NCBI RefSeq assembly: GCF_056712565.1
Contig: NZ_CM160072.1
Direction: 5' to 3' (one strand)
Length of the DNA: 64,000 nucleotides
Under the pieces are notes generated by a model. The model worked only from the letters and a program-made list of their open reading frames with translations, was not told the origin of the DNA and searched no databases. Position 1 is the stretch's first letter, and each line of letters starts with the position of its first letter. Shown here piece by piece: positions 8,231 through 10,369 of this stretch. The translations under genes were made by a program, and so were the position numbers.

Positions 8231-8372
8231 TAATCCAGATAAGATATGATGTATCGTTTAAGTGCCTGATAAGGGTGTAATGTATGCCAATATTAACCTC
8301 GGTAATATCTCGCTACCGAGGTTAATTTTCACTTTGCAATATAATTACAGTCTCTTGCAAGTTGATTTTATC

Positions 8373-9416
8373 TTAGTAATAAGAACCGACCAATCTTATT
8401 GCCATTTCGATATTAGCAGGCATAGATGCGTCGTAGCCATACATATGGCCATATTTCGGACGTAATACTTCAGTTACTTTCTTAATAATTGCTTCGCGCT
8501 GGGCTCGCGCAAAATCAGCATGATTATTTGCCGTTTTATTCATAAATTTACCAAAACTTTCTTCTTTTCTGACTTTAATTGTCGTATCCCGAAGATCATT
8601 AAGAAACTGGCGTTGAAATTTAAAATCATCGTGTGAACCAATATTACCATGCCCGCCAATAAAATATTTCCAGTCAAGCATTTCAACCTGACGCAAATTA
8701 CTGTCATGGTAAACCAACGTATCCGATACGGCGAAGCCCATCATCGGCAGTTGGTCAGGATTCAGGAGATCCGGGCTGTGAGCTACTTTTTCCTGTTTTA
8801 GCAACCATACAGAATGGTCGTCGGTATGTCCTGCTTTAACAAATCGGTGTAATTCAATGGTCTGCTTTTCAAATTTAAACTGGTCATCTTTTTTACTTAA
8901 AACCTGAGTGGCGACGGGTAAGCGACTGTTCATAAATTGCATTTTTTCAGCAGTGGCTTTACTGGCAATAATACGCAGATTCACGCCTTCTTTCTTCGCC
9001 TCATCGTTCCAAAATGGACTATCGCCAATGTGATCCACATGGTAATGAGAATAAACCAGCGCTGTTACGGGTAATGGAGTCACATCACGAATTGCCTGTA
9101 ATAAATATTTACCGCGACCCTCCGGAGCATCAAACAGCAAAACCCCTTTGTCTCCGACATAAAACGTAGTGGAATAAAAATAGCGTTGAACATAATAAGT
9201 TCTCTCGCCAATTTTTTGTAAAATATAAGGCTGAGACATATTTCTTTCAAAAAGGTTATTGAGTTTATCGCTTGGCGATATTATTTTTTCCGCTGAAGGT
9301 TCAACATAACTTGCATTAACCGTAGACGAATTTGCAGTCGAAATTTCCGTTTGAGCAAAAACACTACCAGATATAAGAGAAGAGGCTAGAATTGTATATA
9401 TTTTAATACCTTGCAT
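8373..9416 (-). CDS. Secreted metallo-beta-lactamase-fold hydrolase (function unknown)
   Basis: 347-aa ORF with ATG start and upstream AGGA; N-terminal signal-peptide-like segment (MQGIKIYTILASSLISGSVFAQTE); HxHxDH metal-binding motif (YSHYHVDHIGD). Lies in an AT-rich segment. Confidence 0.75.
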   Translation of the reverse strand: MQGIKIYTILASSLISGSVFAQTEISTANSSTVNASYVEPSAEKIISPSDKLNNLFERNMSQPYILQKIGERTYYVQRYFYSTTFYVGDKGVLLFDAPEGRGKYLLQAIRDVTPLPVTALVYSHYHVDHIGDSPFWNDEAKKEGVNLRIIASKATAEKMQFMNSRLPVATQVLSKKDDQFKFEKQTIELHRFVKAGHTDDHSVWLLKQEKVAHSPDLLNPDQLPMMGFAVSDTLVYHDSNLRQVEMLDWKYFIGGHGNIGSHDDFKFQRQFLNDLRDTTIKVRKEESFGKFMNKTANNHADFARAQREAIIKKVTEVLRPKYGHMYGYDASMPANIEMAIRLVGSYY

Positions 9417-9640
9417 ACGTAGTCCTTTATTAATGTGTTGTTGATTTATAGCATCTCTGAACAGACTGTTATTTTAGATATTACTACGTTACGAGATTCA
9501 TTTTTCTTCGAATATTATGTTTATCTCATTCAAAAAATATGTTCATCATTTGATGGTTTAAATAATATCTGCAAGGCATAATACTCTACATCTTTAAAAC
9601 CTGCCTCAAAAAATCATTCATTAGTAAAAAGGATATTTAT

Positions 9641-10192
9641 ATGCAAAACATAGCTGTGGTTTATTATTCAGGATATGGTCACACTAAACTGGTTGCTGAA
9701 AAAGTGGCACAAGGCGCCCATGCAGATTTAATTTCGATTGATAACGAAGGAAATATCACTGAGCAGGAGTGGGAAAAACTGGACGCAGCCGATGCCATTA
9801 TCTTCGGTGCTCCCACCTATATGGGCGGTGCGCCATGGCAATTCAAGAAATTTGCTGATGCCAGTTCCAAAGCGTGGTTTACACGTAAATGGCAGGATAA
9901 AGTCTTCGGGGGTTTCACCAACAGCGCCAGCCTGAATGGCGATAAACAAGTTACGCTGATCTATCTGCAAACGCTGGCTTCACAGCATGGCGGTCTGTGG
10001 GTGAGTTTAGGTCAGGCTCCTGCCAATGTGCTTGCGTCAACCAGGGAAGATGTAAACAATCTGGGCGGTTCAGTCGGTTTGCTGGTGCAATCTCCAGCCG
10101 ATGCGGGTGCAGACCAAATCCCTACGGGCGATCTGGATACAGCCGTGAAATATGGTGAACGCGTAGCGACAATTACTGCGCGCTTAAAATGA
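9641..10192 (+). CDS. Flavodoxin-like FMN-dependent NAD(P)H:quinone oxidoreductase (WrbA-like)
   Basis: 183-aa ORF; N-terminal motif VVYYSGYGHT resembles the WrbA/flavodoxin-like fold FMN-binding signature; ATG start with AGGA RBS; AT-rich upstream region. Confidence 0.75.
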   Translation: MQNIAVVYYSGYGHTKLVAEKVAQGAHADLISIDNEGNITEQEWEKLDAADAIIFGAPTYMGGAPWQFKKFADASSKAWFTRKWQDKVFGGFTNSASLNGDKQVTLIYLQTLASQHGGLWVSLGQAPANVLASTREDVNNLGGSVGLLVQSPADAGADQIPTGDLDTAVKYGERVATITARLK

Positions 10193-10318
10193 TGATTGCC
10201 GAATGTGACGCTGACGCGTCTATCCGGTCTTCTACATCTAAAAAGTGCCGTCTCCTGGTCAGTCAGATAAAGTTTTAACGCTGTACCCGATAACAGTTCA
10301 ACATGTACCATGTACCAA

Positions 10319-10350
10319 AAGAAAAAAAGCCAGCCTCGCTTGAGACTGGC
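10319..10350 (-). terminator. Rho-independent terminator downstream of rpoS
   Basis: GC-rich hairpin (gccagcctcgc...gagactggc) flanked by an A-run on the + strand, which gives a U-tract on the minus-strand transcript just after the rpoS stop. Coordinates approximate. Confidence 0.6.
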
Positions 10351-10369
10351 CTTTCTGACAGATGCTTAC

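Follow-up and report, generated by a model that had tools for sequence, protein, structure and literature searches.

The published phylogroup B2 segment between ygbN and rpoS of Escherichia coli: a predicted exported VarG-like hydrolase and a WrbA-like flavoprotein

The sequence that separates ygbN from rpoS in the stretch of DNA analyzed here (the window, 64,000 nucleotides) is an already known segment, the B2 insertion of Culham and Wood, and we consider it very likely that this segment was acquired once and encodes an exported hydrolase, o347, together with a flavoprotein, o183. The identification is based on position, size and ORF codon counts. A 2.1-kb rpoS-proximal insertion with ORFs o347 and o183 was described in ECOR group B2 and uropathogenic E. 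coli (Culham & Wood 2000, J Bacteriol 182:6272, as relayed in PMC4209514) and corresponds to c3302-c3304 of CFT073. The same insertion was later named o454-nlpD "pattern III" and, according to PMC4209514, is restricted to phylogroup B2 and ExPEC and serves as a typing marker for them; the same size class is found in ECOR strains (PMC3074542). The window shares with this insertion the o454/ygbN-rpoS position, the size, and ORFs of exactly 347 and 183 codons, and in the position, size and ORF lengths published for it nothing material differs. Structurally, therefore, there is nothing new in a B2/ExPEC marker that has been in print since 2000. What this study adds is the VarG-like placement of o347 and its failure to reach beta-lactamase cut-offs, the occurrence of a related gene pair in Enterobacter, and the lack of mobility genes and flanking repeats.

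Limits of the segment and its flanking genes

The interval from the ygbN stop to the rpoS stop spans 8231..10369, or 2139 bp, compared with a gap of 93 bp in K-12 (BW25113). The first-pass annotation had described about 2.1 kb intervening between two genes that are nearly adjacent in K-12, which these figures bear out, and had read it as an insertion, meaning that the same genes should not occur at this position in K-12; K-12 lacks the segment. By alignment to K-12, the stretch that is not shared extends from about 8219 to about 10323 (about 2.1 kb, no strand assigned), a delimitation that draws on alignments, genome matches and PMC4209514. Its left edge lies within the final four ygbN codons, where the protein sequence is kept and the DNA differs from K-12, and its right edge lies at the base of the rpoS terminator. 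K-12-type genomes match the interval query solely at positions 2094-2139, equivalent to 10324-10369 of the window. About 59 bp of K-12 sequence are substituted by the 8219..10323 stretch, which relative to K-12 is therefore a replacement and not a clean insertion.

On the left flank, ygbN (o454; 6867..8230, plus strand) encodes a GntP-family transporter; its last 12 bp (8219..8230) are already non-K-12, and a 1-bp deletion near 8030 splits the gene in the window. On the right flank, rpoS (10370..11362, minus strand; 330 amino acids counted from MSQNTLKV) is intact, and its product is identical to the RpoS protein of Nissle 1917. The right junction, at the rpoS intrinsic terminator (10323..10356, minus strand; hairpin z -4.2), is common to the K-12, O157 and B2 haplotypes. 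At this junction O157:H7 carries a different cassette, composed of a MarR regulator and the hydroxyarylic acid decarboxylase BCD. The alternative cassette and the published descriptions (PMC4209514, PMC3074542) agree with the initial remark that the mutS-rpoS region is a known polymorphic hotspot.

Within the interval, an inverted repeat lies where ygbN and o347 converge, between their stops (8289..8329, no strand assigned). Repeat search and folding gave it 16-nt arms that are 94% complementary, a 9-nt loop, and hairpins of -21.5 and -21.8 kcal/mol on the two strands (z -5.9 and -5.4), and it is probably a bidirectional terminator. The o347 and o183 genes diverge across a 224-bp spacer (9417..9640, no strand) that is a putative divergent promoter region. 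A scan for sigma-70 consensus promoters returned none inside 9417..9640; its matches overall were fewer than in shuffled sequence and the scan is uninformative. Directly 3' of o183 is a REP-like dispersed repeat with a hairpin (10193..10236, plus strand; z -2.15), which has matches in 5403 of the 5426 E. coli genomes, at a median of 4 places per genome. It is also the location of the only match in an Rfam scan of 7800..11600, a sub-threshold naRNA4/REP hit (24 against 59.5 bits); the same scan placed neither an sRNA nor a riboswitch in the AT-rich spacers.

Composition, distribution and origin

The window as a whole has 50.7% GC, with GC3 values of 0.53-0.54 for ygbN and rpoS. Against this background the o347 gene stands at 39.0% GC (GC3 0.33), the left spacer (8231..8372) at 33.8% and the divergent spacer at 26.8%. 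The o183 gene, at 49.3% GC (GC3 0.45), does not share this AT-richness, and the segment is therefore compositionally heterogeneous. The earlier claim that the interval is AT-richer than its flanks consequently holds for the o347 gene and for both of the spacers singled out as AT-rich (27-39%), and not for the o183 gene. The near-host GC content of o183, next to 39% in o347, is odd for a block from a single donor.

Mapping of presence and absence across E. coli genomes, as the first-pass annotation had proposed, found the full-length interval in 1039 of 5426 complete genomes, about a fifth, always as a single chromosomal copy. It is nearly invariant, with at least 99% identity among carriers. 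Nissle 1917 and ATCC 11775 carry the interval; K-12, W and O157:H7 lack it. The window and Nissle differ at 8 positions in the 2139-bp interval and at 3 in the 1364 bp of ygbN. Both ORFs are intact in the window, in Nissle 1917 and in FDAARGOS_1295, and full-length 347-residue variants of o347 occur on far more than 1000 contigs. When one genome per species was scanned with a five-sequence profile (100,044 species), the sole homologue above 47% identity was found in Enterobacter sp. kpr-6, at a different locus, and none above that value appeared in other species of Escherichia, Salmonella or Citrobacter. Among the matches listed from 5.8 billion proteins, those closest from outside E. coli are 74% and 57% identical. 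Among those listed by the word-indexed protein searches, which near-identical alleles of E. coli saturated, nothing lies between 98% and the 75% of the Enterobacter copy.

We propose that the segment entered the B2 lineage once, in an ancestor, and has passed down vertically from there, the single gain and the restriction to B2 being taken from the literature. Ordinary homologous recombination would have brought it in, through crossovers located within the 3' end of ygbN and at the rpoS terminator. A deletion polymorphism, in which E. coli had the segment ancestrally and the non-B2 lineages lost it, would likewise be compatible with one right junction shared by three haplotypes, with an E. coli-type REP-like repeat inside the segment, and with a divergence between the window and Nissle that resembles that of ygbN (8/2139 and 3/1364). 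It could also accommodate the diverged DNA of the last four ygbN codons, which looks as if a homologous ygbN end had arrived with the segment. However, such an origin appears quite unlikely when o347 and the spacers have 27-39% GC against 51%, when the only species in the scan with a homologue above 47% identity holds it at another locus, and when the closest relatives listed outside E. coli are as distant as 74% and 57%.

The view of the segment as a horizontally acquired cassette stands insofar as the DNA is foreign, but does not extend to a mobile element: the interval contains no integrase or transposase ORF, attC site or tRNA, and a repeat search across the 8219 and 10323 junctions gave short chance-level pairs only, with no terminal direct or inverted repeats. 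The hotspot with its alternating cassettes and the foreign composition are what a transposon, an integron cassette, a miniature island or a remnant of one would lead us to expect, yet we regard this origin as extremely unlikely. In addition to the features missing from the interval and its edges, no close copy of o347 was found on 72,556 plasmids (the best match, at about 31-32% identity, is to genes annotated varG), and each carrier genome has its one copy on the chromosome. The IS1A of FDAARGOS_1295, inserted in the o347/o183 spacer about 150 bp upstream of o347, is a secondary insertion.

The proteins and their divergent pairing

ORF, profile, alignment and model evidence identify o347 (8373..9416, minus strand) as a 347-residue MBL-fold protein of a VarG-like clade. 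It begins with a Sec-type leader, MQGIKIYTILASSLISGSVFA followed by QT, read from the sequence itself, and a similar hydrophobic N-terminus is present in most of its full-length relatives. The motif H124-Y-H126-V-D128-H129 and a match to Pfam Lactamase_B (PF00753; 48.7 bits, cut-off 22.7) accord with the original annotation of a signal-peptide-bearing MBL-fold protein with an HxHxDH motif. Conservation across 34 aligned relatives is 90% or higher at H124, H126, D128, H129, H197, D216 and H256; D216 occupies the position of Cys221 in B1 enzymes, and this aspartate is conserved across the clade. An AlphaFold2 model (mean pLDDT 93) places a C-terminal helical extension at residues 262-346. The HxHxDH...H...D...H ligand set is generic and typical of non-lactamase MBL-fold hydrolases as well.

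An HMM search, which the first-pass annotation had suggested for placing the protein in a subfamily, gave VarG_fam_MBL as the best NCBIfam model (NF033574; E 2e-48, model positions 40-358 of 374), a model that each of the 34 aligned relatives matches too. At 165.3 bits o347 reaches about a fifth of the 750-bit VarG equivalog cut-off, and it is also below the cut-offs for bla_class_B_core (51.5 against 100 bits) and bla_subclass_B1 (50.4 against 200 bits). It thus fails every curated beta-lactamase cut-off. On its sequence, o347 falls in a small clade of which VarG of Vibrio cholerae is the sole characterized relative. A literature search on o347 and o183, the CFT073 names c3302/c3303/c3304 and the RefSeq accessions returned the typing paper only and no functional study. 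A faint Apyc1 Pfam match on the 57% homologue raised an anti-defence role for o347, which was dropped because the match is weak and the protein is predicted to be exported.

In our model, o347 would be exported through Sec to the periplasm, as predicted from its leader, and would act there as a two-metal (zinc) hydrolase built of a B1-beta-lactamase-like core and a C-terminal helical domain. Because VarG is its sole characterized relative, its most likely reaction would, by analogy, be to hydrolyze a small exogenous molecule at a cyclic amide or ester.

The second protein, o183 (9641..10192, plus strand), is a 183-residue flavodoxin-fold protein, WrbA-like and predicted to be cytoplasmic, as judged from its ORF, profiles and a structure match. 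Residues 3-180 match PDB 3d7n ("Flavodoxin, WrbA-like protein") with E 4e-72, and WrbA structures match more weakly (E 1e-9 to 1e-13). Pfam FMN_red (PF03358) scores 37.4 against 24 bits, and the flavodoxin-fold family is matched as well. Both WrbA equivalog cut-offs are missed (TIGR01755 and NF002999; 59.5 against 132.5 and 70 against 141 bits), and o183 is shorter than E. coli WrbA, which has 198 residues. The earlier reading of a divergent, WrbA-type flavodoxin-like protein was thus correct at the level of the fold. We presume that o183 is an FMN-dependent NAD(P)H oxidoreductase, a cytoplasmic flavoprotein of the WrbA-like NAD(P)H:quinone-oxidoreductase type.

In Enterobacter sp. kpr-6, at an unrelated locus, a homologue of o183 (86% amino acid identity) again diverges from a homologue of o347 (74%). 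Between the E. coli and Enterobacter copies, dN/dS is 0.025 for o183; for o347 dN is 0.165 and dS is saturated, hence a numerical dN/dS is not given. The recurrence of the pair at this unrelated locus, together with these values, leads us to infer that o347 and o183 form an old, conserved divergent module under strong purifying selection, and it suggests that their products work together or are regulated together. It is conceivable that neither gene has a function and that both are decaying passengers which hitch-hike with rpoS and mutS: the literature search covers 25 years in which no phenotype was reported, and the segment encodes no regulator. Nevertheless, intact ORFs in the window, Nissle 1917 and FDAARGOS_1295, full-length o347 variants on so many contigs, conservation of all o347 metal ligands, and the constraint seen against the Enterobacter copy make decay highly unlikely.

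Among 28 loci with an o347 homologue there is no universal partner, and LysR genes and assorted oxidoreductases recur. A LysR gene adjoins the homologue in 9 of the 28, and many relatives have such an activator divergent from them, as VarG has VarR; in E. coli and Enterobacter kpr-6 the divergent neighbor is the flavoprotein gene. The theme that recurs near the relatives is redox and aromatic chemistry (NmrA, DoxX, LigB, SDR), not cell-wall or antibiotic genes. Since the E. coli module lacks a LysR activator and its promoter spacer has 27% GC, o347 and o183 are probably silenced or poorly expressed in laboratory culture; both the silencing, by H-NS, and the low expression are conjecture on our part.

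Comparison with VarG and other metallo-beta-lactamase-fold proteins

The remaining value of the segment is functional: one in five sequenced E. coli, among them the probiotic Nissle 1917 and the main extraintestinal pathogens, encodes a conserved, predicted exported zinc hydrolase that is under selective constraint and whose sole characterized relative hydrolyzes carbapenems. If o347 were itself a functional VarG-type metallo-beta-lactamase, the segment would be a chromosomal resistance determinant, latent or active. The best family match, the shared ligand set, the signal peptide and the B1-like core are consistent with this, as are the LysR neighbors of the relatives, which recall VarR-VarG and AmpR-AmpC, and the carbapenem hydrolysis by VarG, which in E. 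coli increases the meropenem IC50 320-fold (PMC5595328). We nonetheless find it doubtful, given an identity to VarG of only about 30%, a score roughly one fifth as high as the family cut-off, and the redox and aromatic-metabolism genes that recur near the relatives. Wild-type B2 strains such as CFT073 and Nissle are, to our knowledge, not known for reduced beta-lactam susceptibility. Measurable beta-lactam hydrolysis by o347 in vitro is possible, if not what we expect, and, given the beta-lactam susceptibility of wild-type B2 strains, a clinically relevant contribution to resistance is very unlikely indeed. A narrower version, in which o347 is a latent VarG-type carbapenem-hydrolyzing enzyme that is silent in nearly all B2 ExPEC (ST131, ST73, ST95), seems improbable to us. 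Under that version o347 would have been uncoupled from the LysR activator of its relatives and could be activated by promoter-up events, of which the IS1 upstream of o347 in FDAARGOS_1295 might be an example; were it true, o347 would be a latent chromosomal resistance gene.

The two-metal hydrolase that we favor can be set beside three kinds of known protein. In a structural ranking of the o347 model, PDB 8D2Z, an MBL-superfamily protein of Burkholderia cenocepacia, comes first, followed by the B1 beta-lactamases. The match to 8D2Z (Foldseek E 6e-17) extends over 311 aligned columns, C-terminal helices included, at 19% identity; 8D2Z is itself uncharacterized and therefore carries no functional information for o347. 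Subclass B1 enzymes (CcrA, VIM, GIM, VMB-1, BcII) share with o347 the alpha-beta/beta-alpha core, with a target-normalized TM of about 0.71-0.80 over about 220-250 aligned columns, and equivalents of HxHxD, H196 and H263 are present in o347. Unlike these enzymes, o347 has Asp in place of Cys221, an additional His at position 121 and an 85-residue C-terminal helical domain, and the identity is 17-21%.

The closest comparison is with VarG, a dimeric, periplasmic, carbapenem-preferring beta-lactamase of V. cholerae with an Asp-for-Cys ligand set composed of H152, H154, D156, H238, D257 and H301 (PMC5595328); the conserved residues of o347 correspond to these positions. Both proteins have the ligand order His-x-His-x-Asp...His...Asp...His with Asp replacing Cys221 of B1 enzymes, both have a signal peptide, both are of similar length (about 374 residues in VarG and 347 in o347), and both continue into a C-terminal extension beyond the 220-residue MBL core. 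Besides the low sequence identity, they differ in their genetic surroundings: VarG is accompanied by the divergent LysR regulator VarR and an adjacent efflux pump, whereas o347 has a flavoprotein gene as its neighbor instead.

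The ygbN–rpoS segment in E. coli

In the window, the end of ygbN (8230) and that of rpoS (10370, opposite strand) lie 2139 bp apart, compared with only 93 bp in K-12 BW25113. The first-pass annotation had proposed a two-gene insertion at this site, to be abandoned if K-12 carried the same genes there, and the comparison bears it out. The intervening genes are o347 (8373..9416, minus strand, 347 aa) and o183 (9641..10192, plus strand, 183 aa), separated by a divergent 224 bp spacer. Nissle 1917 shares this arrangement, with the two genes annotated as ‘MBL fold metallo-hydrolase’ and ‘flavodoxin family protein’. 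The segment had also been described as AT-richer than its flanks, which holds for o347 (39.0% GC, GC3 0.33), the divergent spacer (26.8% GC) and the ygbN–o347 spacer (33.8% GC) but not for o183 (49.3% GC, GC3 0.45), against 50.7% GC for the window overall and a GC3 of 0.53–0.54 for ygbN and rpoS. The AT-richness is therefore confined to the left two-thirds of the interval.

The segment is a known polymorphism, published 25 years ago. Four ‘o454-nlpD patterns’ have been described (PMC4209514), and pattern III, a 3.685 kb amplicon spanning CFT073 c3302–c3304, is the ‘2.1-kb insertion’ of Culham & Wood (J Bacteriol 2000, 182:6272, as quoted in PMC4209514). Pattern III was nearly exclusive to phylogroup B2 among 510 strains (PMC4209514), and the same size class is listed independently for ECOR strains (PMC3074542). 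The codon counts of the two window ORFs, 347 and 183, match the published o347 and o183 exactly, and together with this literature they show that the earlier reading of the segment, as two horizontally acquired genes in a polymorphic hotspot, was correct. A megablast survey of 5426 complete E. coli genomes located the full segment in 1039, single-copy and chromosomal in every case (1034 records at ≥99% identity), with the other genomes matching just the final 46–56 bp adjoining rpoS. Our literature search found no paper testing either protein. In E. coli FDAARGOS_1295 (NZ_CP069890.1, extracted locus L041, 2838-3535), which is otherwise 100% identical to the window over the segment, an IS1A copy lies in the o347–o183 spacer, around 150 bp upstream of the o347 start, where it could alter expression of either gene.

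Junctions and route of entry

Alignment to K-12 ends at window position 8218, within ygbN, and homology returns at ~10324, the foot of the rpoS terminator hairpin, so that ~2.1 kb substitutes for ~59 bp of K-12 that includes K-12's own ygbN terminator. The last ygbN codons read TGG CTC GTC ATC TAA in the window and TGG GCG GTA ATT TGA in K-12. Over 8219-8230 the encoded peptide is nearly preserved (WLVI* versus WAVI*), yet 6 of 12 bases differ, whereas the remainder of the gene is ~98% identical (25 of 1364 positions differ). This divergence of the last four codons suggests that the incoming DNA brought a diverged ygbN 3′ end with it, in which case the donor may already have carried the segment beside a ygbN homologue. 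On the right-hand side, O157:H7 diverges at a practically identical point, with a MarR-type regulator and hydroxyarylic acid decarboxylase BCD genes at that junction and the ygb genes missing.

Between the convergent ygbN and o347 lies a strong inverted repeat (8289..8329; 16-nt arms, 94% complementary) that is predicted to fold on both strands (z −5.9 and −5.4), and is probably a bidirectional terminator that arrived with the inserted DNA. Directly 3′ of o183, a REP-like dispersed repeat with a hairpin (10193..10236) gives a sub-threshold match to the Rfam family naRNA4. Of the 5426 E. coli genomes, 5403 have it, some of them without the insertion, and the median number of places is 4. A similar core, GACGCTGACG(C/T)GTCT, is present close to this junction in the O157 haplotype. 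The recombination-prone boundary may be marked by REP elements.

We propose that the B2 lineage gained the segment once, anciently, by homologous recombination, with crossovers that we infer at the ygbN 3′ end and the rpoS terminator. This model draws on the diverged coding end of ygbN, on a junction common to other haplotypes and on the lack of mobility features: the ORF list and a repeat search found no integrase, transposase, tRNA gene or terminal repeat with the segment, and it is unlikely to be a mobile element. If the segment were instead ancestral and lost several times, o347 would hardly be expected to show its present composition, and the scan of one genome per species found no homologue in other Escherichia or close genera; we consider this history improbable.

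The flanking genes show two further features. A 1-bp deletion in ygbN (6867..8230; a C near 8030, region 8025-8051) leaves the 454-aa GntP-family transporter YgbN as two ORFs, one of 394 aa and one of 61 aa. None of the 4598 E. coli genomes carrying the stretch 7960-8100 matches it at 100% (best 99.3%, the gap being the difference), so the deletion is either a frameshift private to the window's source or an error in its sequencing. The mechanically called rpoS ORF (10370-11398) begins 12 codons upstream of MSQNTLKV, the annotated start. The extension is an artefact, since the first ATG was taken, and RpoS itself is intact and has the same protein sequence as in Nissle 1917.

The o183 flavoprotein and a conserved two-gene module

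The label ‘WrbA-like’ flavodoxin proved a fair description of o183, which aligns over residues 3-180 with PDB 3D7N (‘Flavodoxin, WrbA-like protein’; E 4e-72), matches several WrbA NAD(P)H:quinone oxidoreductases at E 1e-9 to 1e-13 and scores above the Pfam FMN_red and flavodoxin thresholds, while falling under both WrbA equivalog cut-offs. It has no signal peptide. These similarities would fit a cytoplasmic FMN-dependent NAD(P)H oxidoreductase, possibly a quinone reductase.

A scan of one genome per species in GTDB r220 returned 35 loci encoding o347 relatives, all but one at most 48% identical over the full-length match, in marine and soil Proteobacteria, Actinobacteria and the archaeon Methanolobus profundi. 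The exception, Enterobacter sp. kpr-6 (NZ_FOYH01000009.1, locus L031, 4205-6035), encodes an o347 homologue with 74% amino acid identity and, divergent and directly upstream of it, an o183 homologue with 86%. Outside E. coli the pair was found in no further genome, and relatives of o183 are missing from all the remaining homologue loci. Both kpr-6 genes have a host-like GC content (54–55%). They lie among genes for an autotransporter, an S33-type hydrolase, DUF1869, DUF1971 and an AraC regulator, none of them related to ygbN or rpoS. Between E. coli and Enterobacter, dN/dS is 0.025 for o183, while o347 has a dN of 0.165 with synonymous sites saturated. The pair is therefore likely to be an old module under purifying selection rather than a recent transfer between the two hosts, and it is unlikely that the segment is junk DNA. 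Among 5.8 billion proteins none falls between 98% and 75% identity to the Enterobacter copy, indicating that the actual donor is absent from databases, and no close copy occurs on 72,556 plasmids.

In the methanogen M. profundi (L005, 5001-5981) the homologue is 47% identical to o347, implying cross-domain transfer, and a Pseudomonadales MAG (L027, 4950-7233) carries two tandem copies.

o347 and the VarG-like clade

The proposal of an MBL-fold protein with a signal peptide was upheld. By Pfam, o347 belongs to the metallo-beta-lactamase superfamily (48.7 bits, threshold 22.7), and its N-terminus (MQGIK, a 16-residue hydrophobic stretch and VFA|QT) is shaped like a Sec signal peptide and lacks both a lipobox and a twin arginine; a similarly hydrophobic N-terminus is seen in most of the full-length relatives. 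When its subfamily was sought by profile, as had been recommended, the best NCBIfam model by far was ‘VarG family subclass B1-like metallo-beta-lactamase’ (E 2e-48, model positions 40-358 of 374), although the score of 165 bits is far under the 750-bit cut-off. o347 also scores under the cut-offs of two other models, generic class B and subclass B1, and lacks the Cys221 of the latter; we therefore do not class it as a beta-lactamase. Searching 1.84 billion cluster representatives exhaustively with HMMER gave only 66 clusters at E<1e-30, the closest apart from E. coli's own being 57% identical, and the VarG model is matched by each of the 34 relatives aligned. In a confident AlphaFold2 prediction based on that alignment (mean pLDDT 93, pTM 0.88; residues 1-30 excepted), an MBL core is followed by long helices (262-346). 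The top Foldseek match of this prediction in the PDB is 8D2Z, an uncharacterised MBL-superfamily protein of Burkholderia cenocepacia, followed by B1 beta-lactamases (CcrA, VMB-1, VIM, GIM; ~220–250 aligned columns), with alkylsulfatases lower. From sequence and model, we conclude that o347 is a putative periplasmic binuclear-metal hydrolase of a VarG-like clade.

No universal partner gene emerged across the surveyed neighbourhoods, and a soft theme of a regulator with small redox or aromatic-chemistry genes did. Oxidoreductases recur (NmrA-like, SDR, F420/NADP-dependent, PNPOx-like or zinc-ADH), DoxX is a neighbour in 3 loci, and LigB-type extradiol dioxygenases adjoin the MBL gene in 4 (L008, L011, L026, L030). 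Around the 57%-identical metagenomic homologue lie genes of homoprotocatechuate-type catabolism, with a MarR regulator next to it. This theme fits the E. coli flavoprotein pairing and urges caution over a pure beta-lactamase reading. We favour the reading that o347 is a Sec-exported di-zinc hydrolase whose substrate would be an exogenous small molecule with a cyclic amide or ester, and that o183 is its partner. Detectable beta-lactam hydrolysis by o347 is conceivable though doubtful, and clinically meaningful resistance very improbable.

The placement of o347 in the VarG clade with explicit ligands, the tests of beta-lactamase membership that it fails, the Enterobacter module, the precise junctions and the neighbourhood survey sharpen the old question of what o347 and o183 do in B2 E. 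coli and render it cheap to test, but leave the finding itself unsurprising. VarG prefers carbapenems and is a dimeric, zinc-dependent enzyme of the periplasm (PMC5595328). Residues at least 90% conserved in the o347 alignment, among them H124, H126, D128, H129, H197, D216 and H256, map onto the VarG ligands H152, H154, D156, H238, D257 and H301 (PMC5595328), and both proteins have Asp in place of the B1 cysteine. A LysR-type regulator adjoins the MBL gene, often divergently, in 9 of 28 homologue loci (L006, L008, L014, L016, L019, L020, L024, L029 and L032), in several with an NmrA-like reductase or DoxX gene alongside or between. Given that the E. coli module lacks this activator and has a promoter region of 27% GC, we conjecture that it is probably poorly expressed. 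In the relatives, the placing of the LysR gene beside the MBL gene resembles that of VarR with VarG.
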